A stretch of DNA of 64,000 nt, taken from positions 18,687 through 82,686 of the forward strand of contig CANQHE010000001.1 in the NCBI GenBank assembly GCA_947623735.1, given 5' to 3'. Origin of the DNA: an uncultured Bacilli bacterium (GTDB lineage Bacteria > Bacillota_I > Bacilli_A > RF39 > UBA660). The notes beneath the pieces were generated by a model that was not told where the DNA came from, did not search any database, and worked only from the letters and a program-made list of their open reading frames with translations. Position numbers and translations under genes: made by a program. This document shows, piece by piece, positions 13,156 to 36,529 of the stretch. Numbering within the stretch: the first letter of the stretch is position 1; every line of letters starts with the position of its first letter.

Positions 13156-14004
13156 TTATCTTGCTTGTCTTTTAATTAGTTTGGCATGTAATACTACTTT
13201 TTCTTGATCATTATAACAAGTCGATAAAGTAAGTATTTTATCTCCAGCTTGGACAGTTGTTTTAAAATCATATATACTTCTACCCTTTAAAGTATCTAAA
13301 AACTTTTGTTGAGCTTCATCTGTTCCAAAATTAGTTGTTAAATAATAAGTTTCCGTTTTAATTTTATATACCGAAAATACTTGCCATAATGTATTTTCAG
13401 CTTCCGTAGATAAGTTAACTACATAATTATCAGTATTTTCATACCAATTATTTTTAACAATATTTTTAAGCGAACCAAACATTGTTGTATCCATTCTTCC
13501 ATGAGCATATATAATAGTATTAGCATCTAAATCTTTAATATTATTGCGATAATCCATAAATACCCATCCAGCCCCATTAATTGTTTTATTAAAAGATCTA
13601 TTTAAATAATAACTATTATCTTCAGCTTGGACTACAGGATAATTAATAGTGGTTCCATTAACTTTTAAATATGCAACCGTATCACTATTTAAAGCCTTTA
13701 GCTCGTTAAAATCCACACTATATAAAGGAAGTTTAATATATTTCCAGTAATCATCTTCTACTGAAGCATCTGGCGGATTTACAAGTTCATCTTTATCATC
13801 AGCCGGTATTTCTTCTACTTTAATTTCTCCTAAATCCTCAATTTGTTCTCTTGTTTCTTTATTATCTTTACTCCAAAGGAATATATGTAAAGAAGAATAT
13901 ATAAGGGCTCCTAAACTAATTAAAGCAACAACTATCCATACCCAAGATTTAAATCTAAGTTTTTTCTTTTTTGGTTTATTACTTTTATTTTTTTTATCAC
14001 TCAT
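13156..14004 (-). CDS. srtB: class B sortase
   Basis: 282 aa with N-terminal signal anchor, catalytic TLSTC motif near the C-terminus and a conserved His (IIYAHGR). Sits at the 3' end of the array of sorting-signal proteins. Confidence 0.8.
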   Translation of the reverse strand: MSDKKNKSNKPKKKKLRFKSWVWIVVALISLGALIYSSLHIFLWSKDNKETREQIEDLGEIKVEEIPADDKDELVNPPDASVEDDYWKYIKLPLYSVDFNELKALNSDTVAYLKVNGTTINYPVVQAEDNSYYLNRSFNKTINGAGWVFMDYRNNIKDLDANTIIYAHGRMDTTMFGSLKNIVKNNWYENTDNYVVNLSTEAENTLWQVFSVYKIKTETYYLTTNFGTDEAQQKFLDTLKGRSIYDFKTTVQAGDKILTLSTCYNDQEKVVLHAKLIKRQAR

Positions 14005-14100
14005 CTTGTTGATTCCTCCCTAAAAGGTACTAATATTATATCATATTTTCTATCTTAAAGATATTCTTTTTACTATATTTTTATCTTAAACTTAAACTAA

Positions 14101-14126
14101 AAAAGCGATCAACTCGCTTTTTAATA
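14101..14126. terminator. bidirectional intrinsic terminator between adhesin paralog 1 and srtB
   Basis: AAAAAGCGAtcaacTCGCTTTTT hairpin flanked by A and T runs. Confidence 0.6.
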
Positions 14127-14133
14127 AATTATT

Positions 14134-15837
14134 TTATTCTCTTACAAATTTCTTTCTAAGAGCAAGAACGATACCACCTAAACTTACAGCACCAATACCA
14201 ACATAAGTTAGAATATTATCACCAGTCTCTGGACTTACTAAAACTAATTGTAATTCCATACCATCAGTAATTTCTGTATCAAGGCTAAGTTCTTTACCAT
14301 CTTTATCTAAGAATTTCTCTACATCATATACATCTTTTATATTTTTCTTATAATCTGCTAAAGTTGTTCCTTTAGTAACAACATCTTCATAACCAGAATT
14401 ATCAATTGTAACTATAAAAGTTACTAAATCTTTAGCATCAATTAAGAATTGTAAAGCATTTTCAATATCACTTGTTGCTTTATTTAAAGTAGCAACTGCA
14501 TCATCTATTTCTGCTTGACTTTTATATTCTCCTTCTTCAATTTTAGAATATTTTTCAAATATTTCTAATAATTCTTGAAGAGCTCTAATTTCAGCAATAT
14601 TAAGATTTTCATCGTCATCATATTCTGCAGTTTTTTCTGTCACTTCGGCCAATGCTTTTTCTAAAGCACTACTTGCTTTCTCTAATTCACTATAATTTAA
14701 TACTTCGGCTTTTGAGTTTTCAGCAAGTAATGATCTATCTATTTCACTAGCAAAAGCACCACCTTTAATAGAATTTTTAAACGCATTAGCAGTATTATTT
14801 TCAATAGCTAATGAGCCATTTTTTCCTTCAAAATAACCACCAGTTATCTCAAAACTATTTACAGCGGTTTCAGTGGCATCAGCCTTAGTTTCAAATACAG
14901 CAACACCATTTTCACTATAAACTTCTGTTCCTTCACCTATAGTGATTTCAATCTTTTTATCATATGTATCATTAGCAGTTATACTTATACCTGCTCCAGT
15001 TGCTGTCGGATAACCAGATCTTTCTGTAGGGTTTTCTACATAAGCACCCATACCAGTAATTATCGCATTTTTAATATTAAATTTACCAGACTTAATACCT
15101 ATACCTTCTCTACCAGAGATTTCACCACCAGTTATATTCCATTTTGCATAACCAGCTGCATAAATTCCTTGACCACCATTAGCTTTAGCTTTTATTAAAG
15201 CTCCTTCAAATATGTTAATTTCTGGCGCATTTTCTCCATCTTGTTTAACATTTCCATTTACTGTTAAAGCATCACTATTAAATGGATGATCAATAGTTCC
15301 TTTAACATTTAAGGTAACTCCATTAGCTTTTGTTGGATCAGCCTTTCCCCAAATTGCAACTGTACCTTTTACAGTAGCTCCAGCATTAATATTAACTATT
15401 GTCTCTTTACTAGTATCGTCTGAACCATAAATAGTAAAAGTTGAAACATTATCACCGGTCTTTGTTTCTAAAATAGCACCTTCATCAAGTGTTACTTTAC
15501 TACCAGCTTGAGCCACTATAATAATACTTCTATCACTTCTTGCTAAAGTACCATTACTTACAGTTAAGCTAGCATTATCAGAAACAGTGATTTTACTTTT
15601 TAATTCTACTGTTTTACCGCCTAAATCTAAAGTGATATTTTTCGTAACAGTAATATCTTCTGTACCAGCAGTAATAGTTCCTTCGCCTACTGTACAAGTC
15701 TTGTCACCATCACTAGCAGTAAGACAACTTTTAAAAGTTTCCCAAGATGTAATCTCATCGGCACTTACCATTCCAGTAAATCCAAAAGTTGCAATAGCCA
15801 TAACCATAAACCCCATTATTCTTTTGAGATTCTTCAT
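14134..15837 (-). CDS. sortase-anchored beta-helix surface protein, paralog 1 (signal peptide, PbH1-like repeats, ubiquitin-like C-terminal domain, SPETGDN sorting signal)
   Basis: True start is MKNLKRIMGF at 15837 (RBS AGGAGGGAG); the track's upstream extension to 15933 reads through the promoter. Repeated NITGG.I.G.EGIG.KSG motifs. C-terminus SPETGDNILTYVGIGAVSLGGIVLALRKKFVRE is a sorting motif plus TM plus basic tail. Confidence 0.8.
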   Translation of the reverse strand: MKNLKRIMGFMVMAIATFGFTGMVSADEITSWETFKSCLTASDGDKTCTVGEGTITAGTEDITVTKNITLDLGGKTVELKSKITVSDNASLTVSNGTLARSDRSIIIVAQAGSKVTLDEGAILETKTGDNVSTFTIYGSDDTSKETIVNINAGATVKGTVAIWGKADPTKANGVTLNVKGTIDHPFNSDALTVNGNVKQDGENAPEINIFEGALIKAKANGGQGIYAAGYAKWNITGGEISGREGIGIKSGKFNIKNAIITGMGAYVENPTERSGYPTATGAGISITANDTYDKKIEITIGEGTEVYSENGVAVFETKADATETAVNSFEITGGYFEGKNGSLAIENNTANAFKNSIKGGAFASEIDRSLLAENSKAEVLNYSELEKASSALEKALAEVTEKTAEYDDDENLNIAEIRALQELLEIFEKYSKIEEGEYKSQAEIDDAVATLNKATSDIENALQFLIDAKDLVTFIVTIDNSGYEDVVTKGTTLADYKKNIKDVYDVEKFLDKDGKELSLDTEITDGMELQLVLVSPETGDNILTYVGIGAVSLGGIVLALRKKFVRE

Positions 15838-15859: not shown

Positions 15860-15890
15860 ATTATAACATAATACCCCCCCCCCACGTCAA
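15860..15890 (-). promoter_or_regulatory. sigma-A-like promoter with a G10 homopolymer in the spacer (candidate phase-variation switch) for paralog 1
   Basis: Minus strand reads TTGACG-T-G10-TATTATGT-TATAAT (extended TGn -10) with a 19-nt spacer. The C10 run on the plus strand is 15874-15883, ~25 nt upstream of the RBS. Confidence 0.65.
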
Positions 15891-15985: not shown

Positions 15986-17650
15986 TTAGTTTCTTGCATA
16001 TCTTTTCTTTAAAGCTATACCTAAGCCTAAAGTTCCAACAGCAGCTACACCAGCATAAGTTAAGATATTATCACCAGTTTCTGGACTAATAACAATTGCT
16101 TCAAAATACATACCTTCAGTAATTTCTGTATCAAGACTAAGTTCTTTTCCGTCTTTATCTACAAACTTTTCAATATCATAGTCATCTTTTAGAAGTTTCT
16201 TATAATCTCCTAAAGTCATACCTTTCTCAAGTTCTATTGAAATTTCTTCATCATCTATTACTAATGTAAATGTAACAAGATCTTTTGCTTCATTAACTAA
16301 TTTTATGGCATTGCTTAGTTCTTCAGTAGATTTAATTGTTGCTTCTGTTGCTTCATCAATAGCAGCTTGAGTAGTTAATAAATCACCAGCACCAAGCCCA
16401 TAATTACTTAATATTTTCTCTAGATTTTTTAATGCTTTAGTTTGCGCCGCATTTAATTTTTTATCTTGTAAACTTTCTGCTAATTTGTGTCCCTCTTCTA
16501 AAGTTTTAGAAAATTCCTCACTAGCCTCATTTAGTTTATCAAAATTTAAAACTTCAGCTTTAGAATTTGCCGCAAGTAATGATTCGTCTATTTGTGATGT
16601 AAAAGCTCCTCCGGTAATTGAGTTTTTAAAAGCTTCTTTATCTTTAGAAATAATATTTAAAGAACCTTTTGCACCTTCAAAATAACCATCACTTATTTCA
16701 AATTCTTTAACTGCTGTATCTTCTATTCCCGTAGGTCCTTCATAAATAGCATAAGCATTCGTACTATATACTTCTGTATCACCACTTATAGAGATTTCTA
16801 CATCTCCAGCATAAGCTTCATTAGTTGTAATACTTATAGCTGATCCAGTTGCTGTAACCTTTCCAGACTCTTCAACTGGATTTGGCACATATTCTCCGTT
16901 TCCATATATATATCCTCCAGTAATATTAAATTTACCAGATTTAATACCTATACCTTCATTTCCTGAGATCATTCCACCTTCAATATTCCAAGTACCATAT
17001 CCAGCGGCATATATACCTTGAACATTAGAAGAAATAATAGCGGTATCATAAATATTTACTACTGGTCCATTAGTAGATATCCCAACATTACCATTAATTG
17101 TAACACCATCACTGTTATTACCATTAATTGTACCACGTATATTTAAAACTACCCCATCAGCTTTACCATTGTTGTCAGCAATACCAACTGTACCATTTAC
17201 AGTTGCATTAGCATTAATGTTAACTGTAGTCTTATCATTACCACTATCAGCGCCAACAATTCCGATAACTGTTACATTATCATCAATACCTGTTAAACTA
17301 ACATTTTCAAGTGTTAATGTTGTTCCCTTTCTAACTGTAACAATTGTACTTCTATCATCTCTATGAAGATTACCATTTTTAATTGTTAAATTTCCAGTAT
17401 CATCAAGTATAATTCTGTTAAGTAACTCAAAATCAATTTTATTTAAATCAAGTGTAATATTACCTTTAACAGTTAACTCTTCATTTACTGCTACAACTGT
17501 CGAATCCAAAGTACAACTTTTTGTACCACTATCTTGCATACAAGTTTTAAAAGTATCCCAAGCAGTAGTATCAGCTTTTGCTACACTCACAAATCCTAAA
17601 GATGCAAGAGTAACACCAAATAACCCCATCATTCTTTTGAGATTCTTCAT
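15986..17650 (-). CDS. sortase-anchored beta-helix surface protein, paralog 2
   Basis: True start MKNLKRMMGL at 17650. Same architecture as paralog 1; C-terminus SPETGDNILTYAGVAAVGTLGLGIALKKRYARN. Confidence 0.8.
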   Translation of the reverse strand: MKNLKRMMGLFGVTLASLGFVSVAKADTTAWDTFKTCMQDSGTKSCTLDSTVVAVNEELTVKGNITLDLNKIDFELLNRIILDDTGNLTIKNGNLHRDDRSTIVTVRKGTTLTLENVSLTGIDDNVTVIGIVGADSGNDKTTVNINANATVNGTVGIADNNGKADGVVLNIRGTINGNNSDGVTINGNVGISTNGPVVNIYDTAIISSNVQGIYAAGYGTWNIEGGMISGNEGIGIKSGKFNITGGYIYGNGEYVPNPVEESGKVTATGSAISITTNEAYAGDVEISISGDTEVYSTNAYAIYEGPTGIEDTAVKEFEISDGYFEGAKGSLNIISKDKEAFKNSITGGAFTSQIDESLLAANSKAEVLNFDKLNEASEEFSKTLEEGHKLAESLQDKKLNAAQTKALKNLEKILSNYGLGAGDLLTTQAAIDEATEATIKSTEELSNAIKLVNEAKDLVTFTLVIDDEEISIELEKGMTLGDYKKLLKDDYDIEKFVDKDGKELSLDTEITEGMYFEAIVISPETGDNILTYAGVAAVGTLGLGIALKKRYARN

Positions 17651-17672: not shown

Positions 17673-17703
17673 ATTATAGCATAATACCCCCCCCCCAGGT
17701 CAA
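17673..17703 (-). promoter_or_regulatory. promoter with G10 tract in the spacer for paralog 2
   Basis: TTGACC-T-G10-TATTATGC-TATAAT, 19-nt spacer. C10 run at 17687-17696. Confidence 0.65.
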
Positions 17704-17798: not shown

Positions 17799-19580
17799 TT
17801 AGTTTCTTGCATATCTTTTCTTTAAAGCAAATCCAAGACCTAAAACACTTATTGCTCCAACACCCACAAATGTTAAGATATTATCTCCCGTTTCTGGACT
17901 ACTAAGAACAACATTAACTTCAGTATCTTCAGTATACTTCTTATCTAAATCTGTAATTTCTTTACCATCTTTATCTAAGAATTTTTCAATATCATAATCA
18001 CCTTTAACAAGCTTTTTAAGATTGTTTAAAGTAGCTTTTTCTTTTTCTAACTCAAAATCTTCTTTAATGGTTTTTTTACCATCTTTAATAACTAAAGTGA
18101 AAGTAACTCTATTTCCAGCTGCTACTAAATCATCAAATGCAAAGTTAGTTTGTTCAACTAAGTCATTTATCAAAGCTGTATAATCATCAATAGCTTTTTG
18201 AGTTGTAGGTCTTTCATCAAAAGATATATTACTAAAAGCTTCAGCTAATCCTTTAATTTTTTCAACTACTTTTTTCTCAGCTTTATTAAGAACAGACTCA
18301 TCACCATAATCTTTAATCTTATCAAGTTCATCTGCTTTACCTTCTAAAGCTAAGAAACTTTCATAAGCTTTTTCTAACTCGCTATAATCCAAAATTTCAG
18401 CTTTAGAATTTGTTGCAAGTAAAGCTTCATCTACATTACCATTATAAGTACCACCAGTTACTTTATTCTTGATATTCGCATCATCTTTAGATTGGATATT
18501 AAGTGCATCTTTATCTACAGCACTTTCAAAGTAACCATCACTAATATTTAAACCTTTAACAGCAGTACCAGTACTACCATCAGTTTTATATTCCATAACG
18601 GCATTTCCTTGTTTACTTACTAATTTACCACCTGAAATAGATACTGTGACTCTACCATTTCCATAACTATTAGTTACACTTAAAGCAGCACCAGTATTTT
18701 CAGCAGCACTATCCTCTTTTCTTGGAGTTCCATTATATTCTCCATTACCAGTTATATCTCCACCAGTAATATTAATATTACCAGCTTTAGCAGATATACC
18801 TTCAGAACCAGTAATAGTTCCACCAGTTATATTCCATTTTGCATAACCTGCGGCATATATAGCTGGACCATCAGAAGTAATTGTAGCTCCTTCACCAACA
18901 TTAAATTCTGGAGCTTTATCATCATCATCAGTCTTTAAATTACCATGAGCATATAAGCCAAATCTAGTAGCTTTTATTGTCCCATTAACGGTTACATTTA
19001 CACCTTTTGCTCCTTCGTCATTAAATACAGCAATACCAACTTCACCAATTAAAGTTGCATTTTCTCCAATTGTTACACTTGTTGTACTTGTTCCTGTTGC
19101 GGCCTTATCACCCCAAACTGAAATGACTTGAACATCATCAGTTTCTGTTGTTTTTAAAGTTCCCTTAACTACATCAACAGTTGAACCTACTCTTACATTT
19201 ACTATGGCAATACCACTACTTTCAATAGAACCATTACCAACACTACTAGTATCAGTAATCGTAAACTTTGCTGTACTATTATTCCCATCAGTATCTTGAC
19301 CAACTGAAATACGATTTTTCAAAGTTAACTTATGACCATTTAAATCCAAAGTAATATTATTTTTAACAACAATATCTGTACTACTAGGACTTGGTTCGCC
19401 ATCTGTTTCACTAAAATCGCCATTAAGTTTACAAACCTTATTTCCAGTTTCATCTTCTAAACAAGTTTTTAAATCAGCAAAACTACTAATTAAGGAATCT
19501 TCTGCTCTAACAGTCATCGTAAATGCAAATGCCATGACTGTTATAACCAATAACCCACTTATTCTTTTGAGATTCTTCAT
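17799..19580 (-). CDS. sortase-anchored beta-helix surface protein, paralog 3
   Basis: 593 aa starting MKNLKRISGLLVITVMAFAFTMTVRA; C-terminus SPETGDNILTFVGVGAISVLGLGFALKKRYARN. Confidence 0.8.
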   Translation of the reverse strand: MKNLKRISGLLVITVMAFAFTMTVRAEDSLISSFADLKTCLEDETGNKVCKLNGDFSETDGEPSPSSTDIVVKNNITLDLNGHKLTLKNRISVGQDTDGNNSTAKFTITDTSSVGNGSIESSGIAIVNVRVGSTVDVVKGTLKTTETDDVQVISVWGDKAATGTSTTSVTIGENATLIGEVGIAVFNDEGAKGVNVTVNGTIKATRFGLYAHGNLKTDDDDKAPEFNVGEGATITSDGPAIYAAGYAKWNITGGTITGSEGISAKAGNINITGGDITGNGEYNGTPRKEDSAAENTGAALSVTNSYGNGRVTVSISGGKLVSKQGNAVMEYKTDGSTGTAVKGLNISDGYFESAVDKDALNIQSKDDANIKNKVTGGTYNGNVDEALLATNSKAEILDYSELEKAYESFLALEGKADELDKIKDYGDESVLNKAEKKVVEKIKGLAEAFSNISFDERPTTQKAIDDYTALINDLVEQTNFAFDDLVAAGNRVTFTLVIKDGKKTIKEDFELEKEKATLNNLKKLVKGDYDIEKFLDKDGKEITDLDKKYTEDTEVNVVLSSPETGDNILTFVGVGAISVLGLGFALKKRYARN

Positions 19581-19602: not shown

Positions 19603-19633
19603 ATTATAACATGATACCCCCCCCCCAGGTCAA
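19603..19633 (-). promoter_or_regulatory. promoter with G10 tract in the spacer for paralog 3
   Basis: TTGACC-T-G10-TATCATGT-TATAAT, 19-nt spacer. C10 run at 19617-19626. Confidence 0.65.
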
Positions 19634-19677: not shown

Positions 19678-20211
19678 TTAAAACTTTTTAGTCCTTTTTA
19701 AAATTATAAAAATGCCTCCACTAATTAATATTAAAATTACTACAAGATATCCATATGATTTACTACTAACTTCTTCATATATTCCTTTATTTTCTTCTAA
19801 ACATTCTTTAGTATTTTCTTTATTTTCTATTTTAGCTACTAAATCACAATAATTACTTTCTTTTTCATAAGCATCTATAGCTTTCATTATTTTATCTTTT
19901 ACTTCATCATCATATCCAACAAAATAATTAGAACCAATTATAACAAGAGGTAATTTATTTTTCTTAATATCTAATGTTTTTCTAACATCATTAAATAAAT
20001 CTGGATAATCTTCAATATTAATATATTCTACATTTATAAATTTATCTTTTTTATATTCTTCAAGCCAATTTTTTTCAGTTTTACATTCTTCACATTCTTC
20101 TTCATAAAAAACATTAATTTTAATATTATATTCTGAATTCGTTATAACAGCATAGGAAGTTATCGGAAAACATAAAATCATAATTAATAATAACATAAAT
20201 AAAACTTTTTT
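19678..20211 (-). CDS. membrane-anchored thioredoxin/glutaredoxin-like protein, last gene of the giant-protein operon
   Basis: Start MKKVLFML at 20211 (RBS GGGGAGG). Signal peptide, CEEC redox-like motif, C-terminal TM YLVVILILISGGIFIILKRTKKF. Confidence 0.5.
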   Translation of the reverse strand, partial: KKVLFMLLLIMILCFPITSYAVITNSEYNIKINVFYEEECEECKTEKNWLEEYKKDKFINVEYINIEDYPDLFNDVRKTLDIKKNKLPLVIIGSNYFVGYDDEVKDKIMKAIDAYEKESNYCDLVAKIENKENTKECLEENKGIYEEVSSKSYGYLVVILILISGGIFIILKRTKKF

Positions 20212-20284
20212 CATTATTTCCTCCCCAATATTGTTTAAAGGTGTGATTATCAATTATCACACCTTTAAAACTTGTTTTTAATTT

Positions 20285-23200
20285 TTACTGTGTGTCCGCA
20301 ATAACATTAATGCCTTTTTCTAATTCTTCTGTTTCTGTATCATCTTTAATATATTTTATATCAACTAATGATGGATCTTTCGTTTTTACAGTTATATTAC
20401 TAAAATCATCACTATCATTAGAATAATTAACTCCAATTTTCATCGATTGTGATACTATTGTAGCCGAATTATTTGCGACACTTTCTAATCTTAAATTATA
20501 TTTATTACTACTTAATGTATTTGCAGCATTTCTTATTTCAGCATTTGTATCAAAAGCCTTCATGATTACATCACTATTTTTGCCACTACTTTGGGCATCA
20601 TCTTTAGCAAAAGTATTAAGATATAAATCTGTTCCAGACGCTACATTTCCATTAAGATAAACATAATTCTCTATTTTAGAAGCTTCAAATCTATTCCATC
20701 TTATATCACCAATTACTTTAGTACTATGACTAATTAAAATACCATACGTTGCATTTCCAGCCCCTATATTACTTACTTTAGAATCCCAAAGAGTAAATTT
20801 AGCTTTTTCCCCTGAAGTAATATTGACATTTATAATCGCATTACCATTTTCTGAATAATCACTACTATTTCCTTGAATATTTAATCTTTGGAAGAATATT
20901 TCATCAGCCGTAATATTAATTCCTTTAACTTTTAAAATAGATGTTTCTTTTTTATCTCCTATAATAGTCATTGATTTATTAATTGTTAATATTTTATCAC
21001 TTAGATCAATAGTAGAATTTTCATTTATGTATATTTCATCGACTTCAGGTTTTGCTAATGCTTTTTCAAATTGATCAGCATTAGAAACATGCTCAGCCCC
21101 TTCTTTTACACTAACACAAAATGCAGTATAATAAGTTGCATCGCCCGTCACATTTACTTGTTCTTTAACCGAAGCCGACATTTCACAACTTGTTCCCTCT
21201 CCAGAAGCTGTCTTCGTATCGTTATAATTTAAAGAGTAGCCCTTCAAATTATAAATATGACCCTTGTATTCTAATTTTTTCAAAGATGCAAATACTTCTC
21301 CTTCATCAGTTGGTGGTGTTACATTTGATCCATATATTGCATACCTTATGAATGAAGCTTTTGAACCAGCCTCAACATTTTGGAAAGTTATTTTATAAAT
21401 TTTAGAATTTTCTTCTTTATTATAATAATTATAGTAGTCATAATCTTCATCAAATGCTTTAGTATCTCCACGAGTTCCTTTTGTAGCCGGTGTTATTTTT
21501 TCTTTTGTTATTTTTTGAGCCTTTTTATTATCATTAATCGTTAAATTTACAACAGAATTATCATTTTTCGGAGTTTTAATTGCCGGCAAATTATAATTCT
21601 CATTATTCATAGTAAGTTTATCACCACTTACTGTACTTGTATCTTTTACTAAAATTCCAGCTTCAGTATTATCACTAACATCTAGACTACTAAATGTTAA
21701 TCCTCCCGCATTAGATACAACAATAGCTTCTTTAGCTCCCGTTAATTTAAGATTTTCCATACTAACACTTGGAGTTTTAATTGTAAAAATATTTGTTAAA
21801 TTTTTATCACTTTTTGCCGTAATAGTATATGCATCACCATTACTAGATATATTAACCGGATTATTTACCTCCAATGTATTTTCAACATCGAAGCTTTTCA
21901 TTATTTGAATTTTTTTAATACTTTTATTTGCTAAAGCCGCGGTTAATTCTGCTTCATTTTGAACAGGAGCAATATCTGTTTCAAACTTGAATGTATATTC
22001 TTTTGTTACCTCATCATTAAGTTTTACTGAATCATCAAGACTACCAATTATTAATTTAAACTCTTTATTTTCAACAGCCATTTTATTTAAAGTCATATTA
22101 CTTTCAGCTTCTTCGCCACCTAAAACTTTTTTAAATAATGCTTGTGCTCCAACTTGAATTTTTTCTTTTAAAGCTGAACCAATAGGATCTAAACTAGCTG
22201 TTTGCACTTCATAACTACTTGCATCCTTAGTAAATACTACCTTTTTGTCCCCGAAAAATAATGTGATATCTTTTATTTCTCCTCTTTGAAGAATATAAGC
22301 AATAGTACCAGGGATAGAAGTTCTATTCATATCACTTAATTTAGTAGTTGTATCTTTTACTTTAAATGTAATCGTATTGCCATCTTGATTAACTTCGAAA
22401 ATATCTGAAAAATCTGTTGAAAAATGACTATCTTTATTTTTCAAATCCTCAACTACATCAACTAAGAATTTATCTATATTTAATGTATAGTGAGCTTTCA
22501 AAGTAATATCTTCATCTTTATTTGTACTAGCAGATCCAAAAGCAAATTGAACACTTGAGCCTTTCTCCTTATCATACCAATAATCAAGACTATGATATTT
22601 ATAACTATCTAAACTTGGAGCTATTGAAGACTCTATAGTTTCTCCTTGATATACAATTTTAGCTTCAGATTGCACTGTTCCAGTAGACTCATCAAAATAT
22701 TCAAATATTACTTTATTTTCTGATAAGAAAGTAAATGTAGTATTTATAGTTATCTCTTCTGAAGGTAAAAATTCTTTATCGGCATTGCCATCATAATCTA
22801 TTTTATAATGAATACCTTGATTACCATCTTTCATTTTAAATAACACAATAATATATCCATTTTCATAATCAGTTGGTGATGGATGTTTTTCAACATAATT
22901 GCCTTCGCTATCTTTTAAACTGATAGTCCATTTATTATGATATTCTGCTGGTAAATCATCAATAGGAACTGTAATTTTTACAGGAACATAATATCCTTCA
23001 TCTTCACTAAATCCAGCTGCTGGATCTAAAGTTTGTTCCTTTACCGTACCAGTTAAACCATTATGATAGCTTCCAGTTTCTTCTTGCATTCCAGTTGAAT
23101 ATTTAACATCAACCTTACTAAAATCAAAATGCCAACTATTTTCTAATGTTTGCTTATCTATTTCATTTAATTCATTTTCTTTAACTGGTTCATAATCACT

Positions 23201-25276: not shown

Positions 25277-25290
25277 AATTCTACTCCTTT

Positions 25291-27050: not shown

Positions 27051-27081
27051 ATTATACCATATAACCCCCCCCCCAAGTCAA
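27051..27081 (-). promoter_or_regulatory. promoter with G10 tract in the spacer for the Big_2 / giant-protein / thioredoxin-like operon
   Basis: TTGACT-T-G10-TTATATGG-TATAAT, 19-nt spacer. C10 run at 27065-27074. Roughly 160-nt 5' UTR before the Big_2 gene. The paralog-5 terminator hairpin (AAAGAGAGGtttcaaaGCTTCTCTTTTTTT) lies just upstream at ~27100-27140. Confidence 0.6.
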
Positions 27082-28897: not shown

Positions 28898-28928
28898 ATT
28901 GTAACATAATACCCCCCCCCCACGTCAA
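28898..28928 (-). promoter_or_regulatory. promoter with G10 tract in the spacer for paralog 4
   Basis: TTGACG-T-G10-TATTATGT-TACAAT, 19-nt spacer. C10 run at 28912-28921. Confidence 0.65.
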
Positions 28929-28996: not shown

Positions 28997-30448
28997 TTAG
29001 TTTCTTTTTAAAGCTTTTCTTGTTGTAAAACCAACTACTCCTAAACTAATTATTGCCATACCTACATAAGTTAAGATATTATCTAATGTTTCCGGTGCTT
29101 CTTTTACAACTACTAAATGCATATCAGCTTCAACTAAAGTATCTAAATCTAAATTTTTACCATCTTTATTTTTAAATCCAGTTGCATCTTTGTAATTTTC
29201 TAATAAATCTGCTAAAGTAGTACCAGCATCAACTGTTAAAGTAGTTTCTTTACCATCTTCTTCAACTACAATATCATATTGTATTTTTTCAAAAATTACT
29301 TTAACTGTTACTTCACTATCAGGCATTGTAAATTTATTTACTTTAACAGGAACATCCTTACCATTTGCATCAGTTACTATAACTTCAATAGCTTTATAAC
29401 CTTCATTACCTTTATAAGTAATTGTTACTTCTTCACCTTTTTTAGCTACAGCTTTATCAGTTGAAACTGTACCATTTTCAGTCTTTTCTATATTTACAGC
29501 ATATTTAACAACTTTATCAGGTGCATAAACTACATTAGTACCACTTATAGTAGCACCACTTTCTAATGTAACATTTCCTTTAAATTCAAGTTTAGCACTA
29601 CCATTAGTTTTAATTGTCATACCTACTGGAATATCAACATCATCATTAACTGTAGTATCATTATTAATAACAATATTATCTACACCTGTTTTACTAGCTT
29701 CCTCTAATGCTTGTTCCATAGTTAAATAATAATAAGATCTTTCACCATTTGAAGCAGTTATTGGAAATTCAATATCATAAGTAACTCTTACATAAGTATA
29801 AGAAACATTACTATCAACACTACCTGAATCAGATAATCTCCATACCCAAATAGTATCACTTTCTGGTACTGTAAAAATATAGTCTTCACCATATACTAAA
29901 TCATCAACATCACTTTTTCCAGTTAAATCTTTTATTTTATCACCAATACTTGTGCCACCATTACTTAAATCAGTTATTGTAGTCCAAACACCATCTTTAT
30001 TATATTGAATTTGAACACCTAACGTCCAAGCCGGAATATTATCATCATGTTCAGTTCCTTTGCTTTGAGCATCAGCATTAGCTTTAGCTTGGGCTTTTGC
30101 ACATTCGATATCACAAGAATCAGATGTATAAGCATAATGTTTATCTAAAGTTTTATTTTCCTTTGTTAAACCAGTAGGTGCTACACTAACATAGAATATA
30201 CCTAAACTAGCTTTGCCAACCTCACCTGATCCGTATCCTGGTGTTTGAGCTAAAATTGAATCAATAGTATCTTGATTAACTTTAACAGTTACTTTTGCTG
30301 CATAATCATCACCAACAGAAATATCTTCAACCTTAAGTAAATTTGCATCTAAACCACCATTACTTAAAGTTAAACCTGTTGCATTAACTGTTACTACTGC
30401 TACAAACATAGCAACAAATGTCATTACAAATAATTTTAATTTTTTCAT
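28997..30448 (-). CDS. sortase-anchored surface protein, paralog 5 (divergent N-terminal region, same ubiquitin-like C-terminal domain, APETLDN sorting motif)
   Basis: 483 aa with signal peptide MKKLKLFVMTFVAMFVAVVTVNA. C-terminal YDIVVEEDGKETTLTVDAGTTL...VVVKEAPETLDNILTYVGMAIISLGVVGFTTRKALKRN. Confidence 0.75.
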   Translation of the reverse strand: MKKLKLFVMTFVAMFVAVVTVNATGLTLSNGGLDANLLKVEDISVGDDYAAKVTVKVNQDTIDSILAQTPGYGSGEVGKASLGIFYVSVAPTGLTKENKTLDKHYAYTSDSCDIECAKAQAKANADAQSKGTEHDDNIPAWTLGVQIQYNKDGVWTTITDLSNGGTSIGDKIKDLTGKSDVDDLVYGEDYIFTVPESDTIWVWRLSDSGSVDSNVSYTYVRVTYDIEFPITASNGERSYYYLTMEQALEEASKTGVDNIVINNDTTVNDDVDIPVGMTIKTNGSAKLEFKGNVTLESGATISGTNVVYAPDKVVKYAVNIEKTENGTVSTDKAVAKKGEEVTITYKGNEGYKAIEVIVTDANGKDVPVKVNKFTMPDSEVTVKVIFEKIQYDIVVEEDGKETTLTVDAGTTLADLLENYKDATGFKNKDGKNLDLDTLVEADMHLVVVKEAPETLDNILTYVGMAIISLGVVGFTTRKALKRN

Positions 30449-30514: not shown

Positions 30515-30545
30515 ATTGTAACATAATACCCCCCCCCCACGTCAA
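30515..30545 (-). promoter_or_regulatory. promoter with G10 tract in the spacer for paralog 5
   Basis: TTGACG-T-G10-TATTATGT-TACAAT, 19-nt spacer. C10 run at 30529-30538. Confidence 0.65.
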
Positions 30546-30611: not shown

Positions 30612-32663
30612 TTAGTTTCTTTTTAATACTTTTCTTGTTGTAAAACCAACAAAACCTAAACTTAATACAGCTACACTTATATATGTTAATATATTATCAA
30701 GTGTATTAGGTGATTCCTTTACTACAACTAAATACATACCATCTTGAACAGGTGTATCTAAATCTAAATCTTTACCATCTTTATCTTTAAATCCTGTGGC
30801 TCCTTTATAATTATCTAATAAATCTTTTAAAGTTGTTCCAGCATCAGTCGTTAAAGTACTCTCTTTACCATCTTCTTCAACTACAATATCATATTGAACT
30901 TTTTTAAATGATACTTTAACAGTTACAGCACCTTCTGGCATTGTAAATATAAATCCAGTTTTAATAGCTTCAAATGGTAATTCTTCTCCAGCCTCATTTA
31001 AAATTTTAATTTCTGCAATTTCATAACCTTTATCTGGAGTAACAGTAGCCATTACACTTTCTCCTTTAGCCGCATTTTTAGGTAATTTAATACTACCACT
31101 TTTAGGTTTATCAAATGTAATATCACTAACTTTACCAACTACCCCATTTTCAGATTGTTCTACATCAGTATCTAAATATTTTAAAGCAACATCTTGATCA
31201 AAACTTCCAAAGGTTACAATAATATCTTTATTTAAATTTTCTTCATCACCATAAGTTAAAAGTGGTTCTTTTTTACTTTCAAATTCTCCTCCATCAATTG
31301 TAACTTTGGCCTCATCTTCATAACCTGCTTCTGTATTATCAACTATTACCGCAACACCACTAGGTAATTGCACTCTGCCACTTGTATCGCCTTCATCTTT
31401 AGCATCACCAATAGTTATATTATCACCAGTTCCGGTTGCTTTTATTTTACCACCAGTAATTGCAACATCTCCTTGACGAGCAACAATACCAGATTTTCCT
31501 TCAATTATCGCATCTCCTGAAATATTTAGTTTTCCTTTTTGAGGATGATAAATACCAACAATACCACCTTTTAGGCTTCCACCAGTAACATTAATTGTTG
31601 TATCCGCACTTGGATCAGATCCGTTACCAGCAACTGCTGCCGCATCACCAGTAATTTCTCCACCACTAATAGTAGTCTTAACACCATCATAAGCAACTAC
31701 ACCATATCTACCATCAATAGTACCATTTTTAACATCAACTGTTTTCCCTTGAGAGTAAACACCTGCTTCTGCTCCAGTTATATTTCCACCATTAATAACT
31801 ATTGTAGAATTATCAACGCCATCAACACCATATTGAGTCCCAGTAACTTCAGCCTTATTTATGGTAATATCACCATTGCTAGTCGCATAAATTCCAGCCC
31901 AACCTGTAAATTTACCACCATCAACAGTTGTTATCGTTCTTCCATGTACTGCAAGTCCAATTCCGTCATTATCATTTGATTTAATTGTTCCCCCAGTAAT
32001 TGTCGCATTAACATTTCCAGTTGTGTTACCATTTACAACCACAGCTGCTCCAACTGTACCTTCTATAGTTCCACCAGAAACTATTAATTTTCCAGTTCCA
32101 TTTGTATTAAGGTTAATACCTTGTGTACCTTTTACTATACCACTTTTTATTTCTATCGTATTAGCTTTATCATTTTGAGCACTAGTATTAAGATCAGATC
32201 CAATAGCTCCTCCAGTAATTAATCCACCTGGCCCTATAGCTGTAGTATATTTATTTTCAATTGTAGGTCCATCAACAGTTAAATAGTTACCAGTTGCATA
32301 TAATTGTATTGTAGGATATTCTCTATTATTAGAAATTGAGCCTGTTCCTTTAATTGTTAAGTTAGCATCCCCCCATAACGCTATTTGACAATCATCTTGT
32401 AACTTAATATTATAACTTCCTAAATCAAGAATTATAGGCTCTGAAGTTGAACCGATAAATAAATCAGGAAAATTATCAATAGATTGTTTTAAAGTTACAG
32501 TATTACCACTAGCCTCGGCATAACTATCTCCACCAAGAGCTTCAACAATCTCAGCCGCAGTTTTAGCAGGATTTCCATAAACTCCAACATTTGCAGCATT
32601 AACTGTTACTACTGCTACAAACATAGCAACAAATGTCATTACAAATAATTTTAATTTTTTCAT
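30612..32663 (-). CDS. sortase-anchored Gly/Thr-rich beta-helix surface protein, paralog 6 (SPNTLDN sorting motif)
   Basis: 683 aa with the same signal peptide as paralog 5 and dense GG.I.G/TGG repeats. C-terminal ...VVVKESPNTLDNILTYISVAVLSLGFVGFTTRKVLKRN. Confidence 0.75.
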   Translation of the reverse strand: MKKLKLFVMTFVAMFVAVVTVNAANVGVYGNPAKTAAEIVEALGGDSYAEASGNTVTLKQSIDNFPDLFIGSTSEPIILDLGSYNIKLQDDCQIALWGDANLTIKGTGSISNNREYPTIQLYATGNYLTVDGPTIENKYTTAIGPGGLITGGAIGSDLNTSAQNDKANTIEIKSGIVKGTQGINLNTNGTGKLIVSGGTIEGTVGAAVVVNGNTTGNVNATITGGTIKSNDNDGIGLAVHGRTITTVDGGKFTGWAGIYATSNGDITINKAEVTGTQYGVDGVDNSTIVINGGNITGAEAGVYSQGKTVDVKNGTIDGRYGVVAYDGVKTTISGGEITGDAAAVAGNGSDPSADTTINVTGGSLKGGIVGIYHPQKGKLNISGDAIIEGKSGIVARQGDVAITGGKIKATGTGDNITIGDAKDEGDTSGRVQLPSGVAVIVDNTEAGYEDEAKVTIDGGEFESKKEPLLTYGDEENLNKDIIVTFGSFDQDVALKYLDTDVEQSENGVVGKVSDITFDKPKSGSIKLPKNAAKGESVMATVTPDKGYEIAEIKILNEAGEELPFEAIKTGFIFTMPEGAVTVKVSFKKVQYDIVVEEDGKESTLTTDAGTTLKDLLDNYKGATGFKDKDGKDLDLDTPVQDGMYLVVVKESPNTLDNILTYISVAVLSLGFVGFTTRKVLKRN

Positions 32664-32726: not shown

Positions 32727-32757
32727 ATTATAACATATAACCCCCCCCCTTCGTCAA
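32727..32757 (-). promoter_or_regulatory. promoter with G9 tract in the spacer for paralog 6
   Basis: TTGACG-AA-G9-TTATATGT-TATAAT. The spacer is still 19 nt, the shorter tract being compensated by AA. C9 run at 32741-32749. Confidence 0.65.
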
Positions 32758-32873: not shown

Positions 32874-34238
32874 TTAATCTTCTGACTCATATAAAGCTTC
32901 AAATGCTGGAACTGTAATTGTTACACCATCTCTAACATAAATTTCAGGATCAATAGGTTTCCAACCAACAAACTTAAACCCATCTCTTGCATCAGGCGCT
33001 GTCATTTCAATACTTGATGTATCAGCCCGTCTACCTACATTAACAGCACTTTTTCCTCCATCAAATCCTACACAATAAGTTGTATTACATGTAAAGCGTG
33101 CAAACCAAATAAGTCCTCTTCCATCAACACCATATTTCTTTAATGTTTCATTATCTATTCCATTTAATGTTAAATATGAATTAGATGTAACTCCAATCGT
33201 ATCTTTTAAAGTAATAGTTGGTATTGAAGCAATCGTCCGATTCGTAGAAACAATTTTCGCTCTTTCAGAAGCTGATAATTTAAATACTTGTTTAGGCTTA
33301 CTTGTTTCTTCTTGTGTTTTCTTTTCTTCTGTTGCATTTTGTTTATTAGCTTCCGCTTGTTTTAAACTATCTTCCGATTCTCTTTGTCTTCTAGCTTCGG
33401 CATCCGCTTCAGCCTGAGCCGCTTCTGCTTCCACTTTGGCAGCTCTTTCAGCTTTAGCTGCATCTCCGGCTTCTTTTTGGGTTTTAAGTAACTCTTCGTA
33501 TGCTTTATTGTTAGCTTCTTCAGCTCTAGCAGCCGCATCTAATGCCCATTGTGGTAAACTACTTACAGATTGTTCTGCTTCTTCTTTTTCCTTTTCTTTT
33601 TTTGCCTGCTCTTCTTGAACTCTCAATTGTTCAGCTTCAGCTTTTGCTTTTTCATCTTGGGCTTTTTTAGCAGCTTCTTCGGCCGCTTTCTTAGCTTCAT
33701 CAGCGATTCTTTTCTCCTCAGCCGCTTTAGCCGCCGCTCTATTAGCAGCCTCTACTTCTGCTTGAGCTTCTTCCTTAGCTTTTGTTGCTTGTCTAACTTC
33801 TTCTTCGGCTTTTTCAATTTTAGCCATCGCTGCTTGTTTTTCAGTTTCATTCTTAGCTGATTTTAATTCGGCTTCAGCCGCTTTTTTAGCTTCAGTCGCT
33901 CTAATTACCTCTTTTTGAGCAGTTTCTTCTTTGGCTTTGGCTTCCTTAACTGTTGCCTCTGCCTTTTCAAACTTCTCTTGAGCCGCTAAAACTGATTTTT
34001 CCGCTTTCACAACTTCTTCTTTAGTTTTTTCTACCTTTTCTTCAGCTTGTTCTACTTCTTTTTGTGCTTCTTCAACTGTCTTTTCAGCATAACTTAAAGT
34101 ATTTCCTTTATCTACCACACTAGTATAAGCTTTATTTACATTATCATTATTTACAGCAACTATATATGCTCCTGTTGCCACTAATCCCGATGTTAAAACT
34201 AAACCAGTAACAGCTTTAAAAGATAATAATTTCTTCAT
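32874..34238 (-). CDS. M-protein-like A/E/K-rich coiled-coil surface protein with a C-terminal Flg_new-like globular domain
   Basis: True start MKKLLSF at 34238 (RBS AAAGGAGA). N-terminal signal anchor, ~250 aa of AEEKVEKTKEE-type heptad-like low complexity, C-terminal GFKFVGWKPIDPEIY. No poly-G promoter upstream. Confidence 0.65.
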   Translation of the reverse strand: MKKLLSFKAVTGLVLTSGLVATGAYIVAVNNDNVNKAYTSVVDKGNTLSYAEKTVEEAQKEVEQAEEKVEKTKEEVVKAEKSVLAAQEKFEKAEATVKEAKAKEETAQKEVIRATEAKKAAEAELKSAKNETEKQAAMAKIEKAEEEVRQATKAKEEAQAEVEAANRAAAKAAEEKRIADEAKKAAEEAAKKAQDEKAKAEAEQLRVQEEQAKKEKEKEEAEQSVSSLPQWALDAAARAEEANNKAYEELLKTQKEAGDAAKAERAAKVEAEAAQAEADAEARRQRESEDSLKQAEANKQNATEEKKTQEETSKPKQVFKLSASERAKIVSTNRTIASIPTITLKDTIGVTSNSYLTLNGIDNETLKKYGVDGRGLIWFARFTCNTTYCVGFDGGKSAVNVGRRADTSSIEMTAPDARDGFKFVGWKPIDPEIYVRDGVTITVPAFEALYESED

Positions 34239-34380
34239 ATTATAATGTCTCCTTTCTTCCAATAAATATTAAGAAATATTTATACGTATATTATATGCAT
34301 AAAACTCCCAATTAGTCAAGCCCAAAATAAAAAGTGTTAATCCTTTTTGAAAATGTCAGTACAAGATTTTTTGAAAATGT

Positions 34381-34640
34381 CAGTACTATCATATGATAGA
34401 ATATATCTTCGGAACAACTGTTGAAGTATGGCAAGGTGTATTTAATCCTAATTTAGTAGAATATTCAAAAGACATATTGAAGGTCATAGAAGTGATCCTG
34501 TTAAAAGAGAGCAAAAAAGAATTGATGATTAAAAGATATTAGAACAGCTTATAAGAGAAAGAGATGAAAGATTAAAAGCAAGGGCGAAACATAGTTGAGT
34601 TCATCTTGACCCTTGCTTTTTAGATTTCATTAATCATAAT
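34381..34640 (+). other. degenerate insert: 50-aa orphan ORF (MIEYIFGTTVEVWQGVFNPNLVEYSKDILKVIEVILLKESKKELMIKRY) followed by a long imperfect hairpin; flanked by 14-nt direct repeats and an inverted copy
   Basis: GAAAATGTCAGTAC occurs at 34343-34356 and 34371-34384, with an inverted copy (GACATTTTCAAAAAA) at 34706-34720. Hairpin AAGCAAGGG...CCCTTGCTT at ~34589-34622. No similarity to other genes in the window. Confidence 0.25.
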
Positions 34641-34780
34641 ATTTTCACAAATAAAGCTCGTCTTTATTTGTTACTAATTCACTTGCATCGCAAAATACAA
34701 AAACTGACATTTTCAAAAAATCTTAACAGCCCAAAATAAAAAGACAACCTTTAATTAGATTGCCTTAATTTACCATTTAA

Positions 34781-36529
34781 TTAGTTTCTTTTTAATGTTT
34801 TTCTTATTGTAAAACCTAAAGTTCCTAAACTAATTAATCCTAAACTTACATAACTCATAACTGGATCTAAAGTTTCAACAGCTTCAATACTAACAACTTT
34901 AACATACATACCATCAGTAAGTTTTACATCAGATTTTAATTCTTTACCATCTTTATCAGTTATTTTAAGGAATTCTACACCTGACATACTTAACATTTCT
35001 TCAATGTCTTTAACAGTTGAACCTTCCCAGAAGCCCATATCCTCAGCTTCACCATCAACTTCTATAGTAACGGTATAAACATCTTTATAAACTACTGTAA
35101 TTTTAGTATCAGCATTAAGTGGTGTCTTATCATTAAGATCAATAGTTTTCTTACCCATTAAGAATTGTTTAATAATATTAGAATCTCTATATTCATCTAA
35201 AGCTATATCTTTTAAAGCTTTACCTTTAAGAACTTCAAATGATTCAATTTCTTCTCCATCAACATCTACCAAAGTAATTTTAATAGTTTCAACAGTACTT
35301 GAAGTATTACTATTATTTTTAACTAATGTAAGGTTATCATCGCCAACTTTAACATTTACTGCTTTAGCTGATTTATTAAGTAAAATAGCTCCTTCTTCAG
35401 CACTAATAGTTAATTTTGTTGCATCAGCATCTTCTTCAATAACTAATTCTTGACCTTTAGCAACATTAATATTATTAGCGGATACATCTCCTTTAACAGT
35501 TATTGTATTATTGTTAATGACAACACCTTGAGTAAAGTCTACGTTTGCTCCAGCTGATTCATCAACTGTTTCATATTCAAATACAACACCAGCACCAGTT
35601 ACAGTTAGTTTATTATTTTCTCCTGGAACTGAACCAATCTTAGTAGCAGTCACATTGGCAGAACTACTAATAATTGCATTTCCATCTAAAGAAATATCTT
35701 TTCCACTTGATGTTGCATTACCTGTTGCATTAACCTTAGTAGTACCTCCAATATTTGAATCTCCCACTAAAGTAATACCAGTACTAGTATTACCAGTTAC
35801 AGTTATAGTTGAATCACCCTCTGAAGTAATTTTACCTTTAACTCCTGATACCCCATTAGTAACAGTTAAATTACCATTATTTAATGTAATATCTTTATCT
35901 CCAGTAATACCAAATCCCATACTATTTGTTACTTTTACAGAACCATTATCTTTAATATCTAGCTTATTAAGCCCTTGCATACCACATTCCATTTTGGTGA
36001 TATTTAATGCTGAACCTTCGCCACTTACAGTTACAGTTCCTTGATAGTATGCTGATCCATTATAACCAGTAATACCTCCTGTGTTAGATGTACTACTTGT
36101 AGTATAGTTTCCTGTAATATTTACTTTACCACCATTAGTAATATTTAAAGCTGAATTAGCTCCTTTTAAAACTATGGCATAATTTCTTGGCATATTAGAA
36201 CCAGTTACAAATTGGGTTGTAGTTGTATTAGTAAATACTAATTCCCCACCATTTACTGTAACCTTTCCATTCTCTCCAATAATTAAAGTCCGATCACCAA
36301 AATCGACTTTACTAGCAATTGTAATTTCACCATCAATTTCAATCGCTTCGCATTTTGCATCTGAAGCACTACCATTATACCCTAAGGCCGTAGTTAAATC
36401 AGTTGTATCAGTAACTTTACAAATCTTGGCATTAGAATCTCTAGTTACTTCCGCATTAGCTGTCATGTTAAATGCTAAAGACATAACAGCAATCATCAAA
36501 AACCCACTTATTCTTTTAAGATTTTTCAT
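34781..36529 (-). CDS. sortase-anchored beta-helix surface protein, paralog 7 (AVETLDP sorting motif)
   Basis: 582 aa with signal peptide MKNLKRISGFLMIAVMSLAFNMTANA, NITNGG/VTGN repeats, C-terminal ...VVSIEAVETLDPVMSYVSLGLISLGTLGFTIRKTLKRN. Confidence 0.75.
   Translation of the reverse strand: MKNLKRISGFLMIAVMSLAFNMTANAEVTRDSNAKICKVTDTTDLTTALGYNGSASDAKCEAIEIDGEITIASKVDFGDRTLIIGENGKVTVNGGELVFTNTTTTQFVTGSNMPRNYAIVLKGANSALNITNGGKVNITGNYTTSSTSNTGGITGYNGSAYYQGTVTVSGEGSALNITKMECGMQGLNKLDIKDNGSVKVTNSMGFGITGDKDITLNNGNLTVTNGVSGVKGKITSEGDSTITVTGNTSTGITLVGDSNIGGTTKVNATGNATSSGKDISLDGNAIISSSANVTATKIGSVPGENNKLTVTGAGVVFEYETVDESAGANVDFTQGVVINNNTITVKGDVSANNINVAKGQELVIEEDADATKLTISAEEGAILLNKSAKAVNVKVGDDNLTLVKNNSNTSSTVETIKITLVDVDGEEIESFEVLKGKALKDIALDEYRDSNIIKQFLMGKKTIDLNDKTPLNADTKITVVYKDVYTVTIEVDGEAEDMGFWEGSTVKDIEEMLSMSGVEFLKITDKDGKELKSDVKLTDGMYVKVVSIEAVETLDPVMSYVSLGLISLGTLGFTIRKTLKRN

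Follow-up and report, generated by a model that had tools for sequence, protein, structure and literature searches.

Analysis of a 64-kb window, that is, the whole stretch of 64,000 nt from contig CANQHE010000001.1 (assembly GCA_947623735.1) of an uncultured Bacilli bacterium, revealed an array of seven paralogous surface-protein genes lying upstream of one class B sortase gene, the last gene of the array, with a run of 9 or 10 G residues in the promoter spacer of every paralog and of one further transcription unit. All genes of the array region are on the minus strand. We consider it probable that the array works as a contingency locus in which eight units for surface proteins can be switched independently of one another; the products of seven of them would be anchored by a class B sortase of a subfamily reading P-x-T-x-D-(N/G). 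A previous sequence-only reading of this DNA had described the seven open reading frames (ORFs), each with a shared C-terminal block, a sorting motif, a hydrophobic segment and a basic tail, as well as a terminal srtB containing TLSTC, and all of these were recovered (Table 1). It had also interpreted the family as variable surface antigens; the poly-G promoters, which it overlooked, strengthen this interpretation.

The class B sortase

The sortase gave 179.7 bits against TIGR03064 (cutoff 153.75). Its nearest PDB entry was SrtB of Bacillus anthracis (1rz2, 1.6e-39), and the best solved relatives also included the enzymes of Staphylococcus aureus and Clostridioides difficile (5gyj of the latter, 3.5e-30). 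The catalytic Cys was present in TLSTC, and the His in IIYAHGR aligned to ILYGHRM of 1rz2. The model specific for SrtB enzymes that sort LPKTxAVK (NF040525) scored 74.8 against a cutoff of 200. A terminator hairpin lies between the gene and paralog A1, and an extended -10 promoter of its own, with no G run, precedes the gene. Only one sortase signature was found in the window.

Sorting signals of the paralogs and of related loci

The seven proteins contained the motifs SPETGDN (four proteins), APETLDN, SPNTLDN and AVETLDP, in each case followed by a hydrophobic segment of about 20 residues and a tail of K/R. These motifs had been quoted correctly in the sequence-only reading, which regarded the signal as unusual; this does not apply to SPETGDN, as it fits the (S/P)PxTG pattern of C. 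difficile. Four of the seven paralogs (SPETG) combine (S/P)PxTG with a hydrophobic stretch, a basic tail and a signal peptide, whereas APETL, SPNTL and AVETL lack the Gly of the motif and AVETL lacks the Pro as well. It had further been stated that ILTY(V/A)G always follows the motif, but the sequences actually present were ILTYVG (twice), ILTYAG, ILTFVG (twice), ILTYIS and VMSYVS.

Signals for comparison were collected from 80 loci around related sortases (50–65% identity) in gut metagenome-assembled genomes labelled uncultured Bacilli, Tenericutes or Mollicutes, by taking every ORF that ended with xPxT, a hydrophobic stretch and a basic tail, plus the homologs of the paralog heads; only xPxT was imposed. 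The 81 non-redundant signals gave the consensus (N/V/S/A)PxT-x-D-(N/G)-(I/V). With the Thr taken as P1, position P4 was occupied by N (51), V (12), S (8), A (4), P (3) or T (3), and P1′ by G (26), S (21), F (10), Y (7), L (4), A (4), I (4), N (3) or V (2), so that 55 of the 81 had a residue other than Gly at P1′. Asp was found at P2′ in 77 signals, N or G at P3′ in 36 and 26, and I or V at P4′ in 50 and 16, respectively. Mixed P1′ residues occurred within single-sortase loci, namely L049, L052, L053 and the window itself. Judged by conservation, the peculiarity is therefore one of the whole sortase subfamily, in which P1′ is free and the Asp at P2′ is near-invariant. The membrane helix begins with the "ILTY", which other species do not conserve; from the signals compared, the conserved extension is Asp-Asn/Gly-Ile/Val.

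Published experiments with two class B enzymes bear on the downstream residues. C. difficile SrtB, the native substrates of which carry SPKTGDN, SPKTGDE and PPKTGDS, cleaves the peptide SDSPKTGDN, and the presence of two native downstream residues at least doubles cleavage (PMC4155245). For B. anthracis SrtB, the P2′ Asp of DNPKTGDE is required for full activity (PMC11987632). It appears from these comparisons that the sortases of the present subfamily recognize P-x-T plus D-(N/G) with P1′ unconstrained. In the literature searched, neither a PxTxD signal with a free P1′ nor a description of this protein family was found.

A competing explanation is that sorting is confined to the four SPETGDN proteins, the T-L-D and AVETLDP proteins staying in the membrane by way of their C-terminal helix or being served by another sortase encoded elsewhere in the genome. 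Among the tails, curated models detected that of SPETGDN alone (21.4 against LPXTG_anchor TIGR01167, cutoff 15.9; 23.5 against NPXTG NF033846, cutoff 23.5); the T-L tails, as well as the T-Y, T-F and T-S tails of relatives, had no match to either model at E≤10. All SrtB enzymes tested cleave T|G or T|N (PMC4155245, PMC11987632), NVQTG is rejected by the C. difficile enzyme, and the view is limited to 64 kb. However, the 55 signals with non-Gly P1′ lie near related sortases and keep the P2′ Asp, single-sortase loci have mixed P1′, and selection for xPxT-x-D would be left without explanation if such signals were never processed. In addition, the class B system for LPKTxAVK has a free P1′ (NF040525; PMC4974636). 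This explanation seems doubtful to us, and sorting of all seven paralogs by the array sortase is preferred.

Poly-G promoter cassettes

Alignment of the upstream regions revealed one cassette 5′ of all seven paralogs, ATATTGAC-N-T-G10-TAT(T/C)ATG(T/C)-TA(T/C/G)AAT, and an eighth copy 5′ of the unit coding for the Big_2, 1663-aa and glutaredoxin-like proteins. The cassettes have the form TTGACN-(1–2 nt)-G9–10-8 nt-TAnAAT, with a run of at least 8 between -35 and -10; seven of the runs are G10 and one is G9, located between the -35 TTGAC and an extended -10 that has its TG in all copies. The distance from TTGACN to TAnAAT was 19 bp in all eight. No other G/C run of 7 or longer occurs in the window, the GC content of which is 28.8%. 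TTGACNNG9 was matched 7 times versus 0.00 in shuffled sequences, and G8 occurred 23 times versus 0.18. By analogy with known loci, the cassette is of the classic design for slipped-strand phase variation. Each paralog had been said to possess its own promoter and terminator, which is correct for the promoter in all seven; hairpins resembling terminators were located 3′ of most of them (9 found versus 3.5 expected, with further ones seen by eye).

In group A (see below), a Shine-Dalgarno sequence and an ATG follow within about 25 nt of the cassette, and the longer TTG-started ORFs in the ORF list are thus artefacts. A scan of the leaders at Rfam gathering thresholds for riboswitches, such as those for cyclic di-GMP (c-di-GMP), returned tRNAs only. 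It was also noticed that the group B leaders (30449–30514 and 32664–32726, minus strand) share about 60 nt with those of their relatives in three other species (L027, L217 and L220), including two Shine-Dalgarno-like boxes (AAGAAAGGAG ... AAGAAAGGAAGAGGATAnT-ATG), the 5′-proximal one of which might be an mRNA stabiliser.

Run-length variation and related promoters

Run lengths were compared between the reference and same-species contigs from four other assemblies (five assemblies). Flanking sequences were identical (40/40) while the length of the run differed at three of the eight promoters: that of A1 had G11 in L001, that of paralog C had G7 in L084 and that of A4 had G9 in L089, each being G10 elsewhere. 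One contig ends inside a G run, and L092 starts inside one. Several independent assemblies of the species (L001–L003, L084–L092) break at or near the poly-G promoters, several short contigs beginning or ending within about 500 bp of one, which is consistent with read-level heterogeneity or with poor coverage at the runs.

Relatives of the cassette that have no run showed spacers of 17–18 bp: 18 bp for the one 5′ of the coiled-coil gene, 17 bp for gene 10932 of L027, and 18 bp for L217–219, where a decayed run (GTGGGAAGGG) was found. Since these relatives restore 17–18 bp with non-repetitive sequence, it can be argued that spacing, not sequence, is what matters. The same promoter design was found 5′ of PxTxD substrates in other species, including four genes of L027, three tandem paralogs of L220, and L221, with G8 and a spacer of 18 bp in the last two loci. 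A G10 promoter in L024 precedes a 458-aa N-terminally anchored protein (19270–20646, minus strand) that is not a sortase substrate; a paralog located 1.4 kb away (17826–18956, minus strand) has the same N-terminus and no run. Single-copy homologs of the head had no G run.

A metagenome scan with the promoter pattern gave at least 120 loci; none of those listed matched the cassette of this species, and they represent other organisms with the same design. One unrelated family (L094, L095, L099, L100, L108, L110, L116–L118, L120, L123 and about 40 more) had the promoter CTTGACACC-G7..9-TATGCTATAATGC 80 nt 5′ of genes for 210–270-aa lipoproteins (MKLKKIASLMLAGVMAVSMLAGC...) with hypervariable bodies; its loci had a GC content of mostly about 0.5–0.65, and the run length varied among contigs. 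In L096, L126, L131, L192 and L211, TTGACT-G7..8-ACnnGATGCTATAAT was present 5′ of genes for 750–1100-aa proteins that end with ...NAGVRWSF and resemble the autotransporters of a diderm Firmicute; they make up another family with poly-G spacer promoters.

The G run could instead be a fixed promoter element, either a regulator site or a structural spacer, in which case the family would be co-regulated and not switched stochastically. The spacer of 19 bp is identical in all eight cassettes, as would be seen in a co-regulated regulon, most assemblies agree on G10, and tracts of the opc type can work via a regulator (PMC7864442). Against a fixed element stand the lengths of 7, 9 and 11 with identical flanks and the replacement of the run in relatives by non-repetitive sequence restoring 17–18 bp. 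Furthermore, G runs of 9–10 are intrinsically prone to slippage. We regard a fixed element as improbable, and independent switching through the run as the preferred explanation.

Proposed mechanism and its strength

The locus, which would be chromosomal in an uncultured low-GC (28.8%) gut Bacilli bacterium, is proposed to work as follows. Each paralog gene, and likewise the Big_2/giant/glutaredoxin-like operon, would form its own transcription unit, eight in all. Slipped-strand mispairing would alter the G run by single bases, each unit drifting independently between weak transcription at 19–20 bp and strong transcription at 17–18 bp, and a population with up to 2^8 surface types would arise. 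The products, predicted to consist in order of a signal peptide, a variable head, a helical stalk (modelled for A1), a ubiquitin-like module, xPxT-x-D-(N/P), a transmembrane (TM) helix and a basic tail, would be cleaved by the sortase after the Thr and joined to peptidoglycan, where they may serve as adhesins or in evasion of immunity or phages. In Treponema pallidum, tp0126/tpr promoters are permissive with 8 G or fewer and off with 10 G, 17 nt being optimal (PMC7864442). By this rule, all eight promoters would be weak in the consensus and strong with G8–G9, and the relation between length and activity may be graded or species-dependent.

Several points weigh against this proposal. In the reference, all eight promoters deviate from the optimum that is predicted, and an extended -10 can relax the demand on -35 spacing, so that the run would provide volume control and not an on/off switch. 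As read here, the spacers in L027 range from 18 to 23 bp, so that a plain rule of 17 bp may not hold here. The variant run lengths were seen in four assemblies of low coverage (about 3), whose accessions fall in a consecutive range (ERZ272491xx-6xx) and possibly belong to one project. Concerning the enzyme, a Lys is aligned to the catalytic Arg of 1rz2 (TLSTC-YNDQE-K-VVLHAKL versus ...AG-R-LVVHAKL), with 6 residues from the Cys to this position versus 10 in the B. anthracis enzyme. This Lys is shared by about half of 79 related sortases (loci L004–L083), the other half having Arg, with no clean correlation between K or R and the P1′ residue; because the sortase passes the curated model TIGR03064, we treat the Lys as a family variant and not as an exclusion. 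With respect to the substrates, AVETLDP has no P3 Pro, and NVQTG was not cleaved by C. difficile SrtB in vitro (PMC4155245). The view covers 64 kb of the genome, and a second sortase may be encoded elsewhere.

A wider proposition concerns the relatives, namely that a widespread subfamily of class B sortases of uncultured gut Bacilli, about half of them with Lys for the catalytic Arg, reads P-x-T-x-D-(N/G) with any P1′, sensing the leaving-group side via the P2′ Asp and not via Gly, and that their substrates have in several species expanded into arrays whose members are individually switched by poly-G spacers. Gram-positive bacteria would then have, on the basis of sortases, an equivalent of the contingency families Opa, Tpr and Vlp. 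We consider this as likely as not.

Array layout and neighbouring genes

The features of the array and its neighbourhood are listed in Table 1. The paralogs align across a common C-terminal block, in which KDGK, T, D and K are invariant, and fall into three groups: A (14134, 15986, 17799 and 27146), B (28997 and 30612) and 34781 alone. Identity is 41–51% within group A and about 25% for 34781. Look-ups returned no exact-protein record for 17799 and 28997. The signal peptides, once described as near-identical throughout, are of two types, MKNLKRI... and the identical MKKLKLFVMTFVAMFVAVVTVNA pair of group B. At the DNA level, the ends (promoter and signal-peptide region at 5′, module and anchor at 3′) have identities far above those of the middles; the group B pair reaches 99% over 101 nt and the 3′ ends of A3 and A4 92% over 228 nt. 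Such a mosaic structure fits gene conversion or cassette exchange.

Table 1. Positions of the array genes, their promoters and further features in the 64-kb window
Feature	Position	Strand	Basis or remark
Class B sortase, 282 aa, N-terminal membrane anchor, TLSTC	13156..14004	-	TIGR03064; PDB 1rz2
A1 terminator hairpin (~14099-14120), then sortase extended -10 promoter TGaTATAAT (14035-14043), no G run	14035..14120	-	direct reading
Paralog A1, 567 aa, SPETGDN, TM helix, basic tail	14134..15837	-	alignment; AlphaFold2
A1 promoter cassette TTGACG-T-G10-TATTATGT-TATAAT, spacer 19, G run 15874-15883	15860..15890	-	
Paralog A2, 554 aa, SPETGDN	15986..17650	-	
A2 promoter cassette, G10 (17687-17696), spacer 19	17673..17703	-	
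Paralog A3, 593 aa, SPETGDN	17799..19580	-	
A3 promoter cassette, G10 (19617-19626), spacer 19	19603..19633	-	
Three-gene Big_2/giant/glutaredoxin-like unit	19678..26886	-	all three without sorting signal
Glutaredoxin-like protein, 191 aa, C-terminal TM	19678..20253	-	
1663-aa secreted protein with Flg_new	20285..25276	-	
Big_2 x4 + Flg_new protein, N-terminal TM	25291..26886	-	
Eighth promoter cassette TTGACT-T-G10-TTATATGG-TATAAT, spacer 19, G run 27065-27074; ~150-nt leader to Big_2 gene	27051..27081	-	
Paralog A4, 575 aa, SPETGDN	27146..28873	-	
A4 promoter cassette, G10 (28912-28921), spacer 19	28898..28928	-	
Paralog B1, 483 aa, different head, Flg_new_2, ubiquitin-like module, APETLDN	28997..30448	-	
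B1 promoter cassette, G10 (30529-30538), spacer 19, then ~60-nt leader with two Shine-Dalgarno-like boxes	30515..30545	-	
Paralog B2, 683 aa, Gly-rich repeat head, Flg_new_2, ubiquitin-like module, SPNTLDN	30612..32663	-	
B2 promoter cassette TTGACG-AA-G9-TTATATGT-TATAAT, spacer 19, G run 32741-32749	32727..32757	-	
Ala/Glu/Lys-rich coiled-coil-like protein, N-terminal TM, no sorting signal	32874..34238	-	sub-threshold SEC10/PgrA match
"Locked" cassette relative TTGACT-18 bp-TATAAT, AATTGGGAG (GGGAG) at G-run position	34290..34319	-	direct reading
Paralog C, 582 aa, Gly-rich repeat head, ubiquitin-like module, AVETLDP (no P3 Pro)	34781..36529	-	
Paralog C promoter cassette, G10 (36567-36576), spacer 19	36553..36583	-	
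tRNA-Ser(GCT) adjoining array	36992..37084	-	
Eighth candidate sortase substrate outside array, 486 aa, unrelated head, VPPTIDNI signal	57037..58497	-	

Three further proteins described previously were recovered as well: the 1663-aa protein, the one with Big_2/Flg_new and the Ala/Glu/Lys-rich one. The last had been likened to M proteins, which is not supported as regards anchoring, as it ends with ...FEALYESED and possesses neither a sorting motif nor a C-terminal TM segment. Between its gene and paralog C, a stretch of about 500 bp (34262–34781) harbours several hairpins and lacks any ORF of 80 aa or longer, and may represent either the remnant of a gene or regulatory DNA. The candidate substrate gene outside the array has an ordinary extended -10 promoter with no G run, and its product had no Pfam match. 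On the other side, the ribosomal protein S2 gene (11148–12131, minus strand) codes for a protein whose C-terminus is extended by a long stretch rich in Lys and Glu; at its end is a Rho_N-like domain, which was identified as PF07498 on the identical gene in L003.

The tRNA-Ser had been suggested to mark an island boundary, and horizontal acquisition of the region as a genomic island at this tRNA would agree with its position 460 bp from the last paralog and with the different neighbourhoods of the sortase in relatives. The GC content of the region (0.28–0.35), however, resembles that of the flanks (0.25–0.31) with the skew unchanged, no ORF of integrase size and no att-like repeat of the tRNA-Ser end were found, and the rpsB-tsf side consists of housekeeping genes. 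An island of this kind is thus very unlikely. In the 80 related loci the sortase sits in other contexts, with no synteny to rpsB, tsf or gerA.

Predicted architecture of the paralogs

The AlphaFold2 model of A1 (44 homologs) had a mean predicted local distance difference test score (pLDDT) of 88.3 and a predicted template modelling score of 0.80. It consisted of a signal peptide, a beta-rich, solenoid-like head (residues 27–360), three long helices (383–468), the C-terminal module (471–533), the sorting signal and a TM helix. Modelled alone, the module had a pLDDT of 90 and the topology beta-beta-alpha-beta-beta, and Foldseek matched it to ubiquitin, SUMO and bacterial ubiquitin-like domains (template modelling score 0.6–0.7, probability 1.0). 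On these models, the assignment of the module to the ubiquitin-like beta-grasp fold holds, its length being about 65–72 aa and not the about 80 aa given before. No Pfam family matched the module at cutoff, and the sub-threshold matches were all to ubiquitin-like families. An identity of the module as Flg_new/InlB B-repeat was not supported, as there was no such Pfam match on the module and hhalign gave a probability of 13% to a Flg_new protein; in the group B proteins, a true Flg_new_2 domain is situated directly upstream of the module. A word-index search with the module profile gave 2 matches, and a full HMMER scan gave 38 among 1.84 billion representatives at E≤1e-3, so the module is rare. 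The good matches were orthologous proteins of 520–580 aa with the same architecture and the weak ones Flg_new repeat proteins.

Searches with hidden Markov models, which had been proposed as a check, returned Big_2, Flg_new and Flg_new_2; the heads of all paralogs had no match in Pfam, including PbH1/Beta_helix, and none in NCBIfam. A profile of 44 homologs had no match among PDB sequences, and no beta-helix was among the 50 best Foldseek PDB matches listed. The group A head had weak matches to viral proteins annotated "right handed beta helix", and paralog C scored 22.9 against the T5SS repeat model TIGR04393 (cutoff 23). The AlphaFold2 model, the strand pattern and the weak matches support a beta-solenoid-like head for group A, with no family membership; of the beta-helix heads predicted earlier, this much was retained. 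Homologs of the head elsewhere carry other anchors, such as SLH domains, indicating that the head is a portable surface module. Near a single-copy head homolog of another species (L213, 2309–3848), three small ORFs and a short RVT_1 reverse-transcriptase gene were noticed, which might be a retroelement or a diversity-generating element.

It is hardly credible that the class B sortase assembles the paralogs into pili, as happens in Streptococcus pyogenes: some class B sortases are pilin polymerases with VPxTG-like signals (PMC3019223), but the A1 model has a solenoid, a helical stalk and a ubiquitin-like module instead of CnaB/Ig pilin folds, and a separate switchable promoter for each gene is at odds with stoichiometric assembly.

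Comparison with known systems

The sortase of C. difficile (substrates CD0386, CD2831 and CD3392, among others) is, like the one described here, a class B general anchoring enzyme, and its signals SPKTGDN/DE/DS resemble SPETGDN. In contrast to C. difficile, L or I stands in place of Gly at P1′ in three of the seven array signals and in that of 57037, the sortase is only moderately similar and has Lys for the catalytic Arg, and the promoters carry poly-G runs with no c-di-GMP riboswitch in the Rfam gathering scan. In B. anthracis, SrtB/IsdC (DNPKTGDE) represents the closest solved sortase, for which the P2′ Asp was shown experimentally to matter (PMC11987632); it has a single haem-uptake substrate, a fixed P1′ Gly and the catalytic Arg, whereas many adhesin-like substrates with a free P1′ are found here. 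The oral streptococcal SrtB/AbpA system (LPKTxAVK; NF040525) is also class B with a free P1′ and has conserved residues further downstream; here, D-(N/G) takes the place of AVK as the downstream determinant.

As for the promoters, the neisserial porA and opc are controlled by G/C runs in a manner similar to that of T. pallidum (PMC7864442). In these organisms, as here, surface-protein genes, a family of paralogs among them, have a G (or C) run within the -35/-10 spacer or adjacent to it, but these organisms are diderm pathogens with outer-membrane proteins, whereas a Gram-positive-type commensal with sortase substrates is concerned here, and eight near-identical cassettes are collected in one 23-kb array. 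Combinatorial ON/OFF switching of a tandem surface-protein family was described for Vlp of Mycoplasma hyorhinis (cited in PMC11868660). The Vlp proteins are lipoproteins with size variation by repeat length, linked to neither a wall nor a sortase. Each vlp promoter spacer contains a poly-A homopolymer. In the gut commensal Bifidobacterium breve, sortase-dependent pili are switched by replication slippage (PMC9187656). Here, the run is in the promoter spacer of eight units. That of B. breve is reportedly a homopolymeric G run in the coding sequence, acting by frameshift. The signals of the C. difficile and B. anthracis SrtB enzymes and phase variation by poly-G promoters are thus known elements; the novelty lies in their combination, in a P1′ left free beside an invariant Asp at P2′, and in their occurrence in gut Bacilli that are uncultured.

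Implications

If the proposal is true, the rules for sortase signals would be extended, in that a free P1′ with an obligatory Asp at P2′ predicts substrates missed by current models, and such a sortase could be useful for sortase-mediated ligation at non-glycine junctions. Surveys of phase variation in the gut, to our knowledge, focus on invertible promoters. Uncultured gut commensals of the Bacilli and "Tenericutes-like" lineages would then also use simple-sequence contingency loci for wall proteins. As the run lengths can be read from metagenomic reads, selection on the surface variants by immunoglobulin A or by phages would be testable without cultivation.

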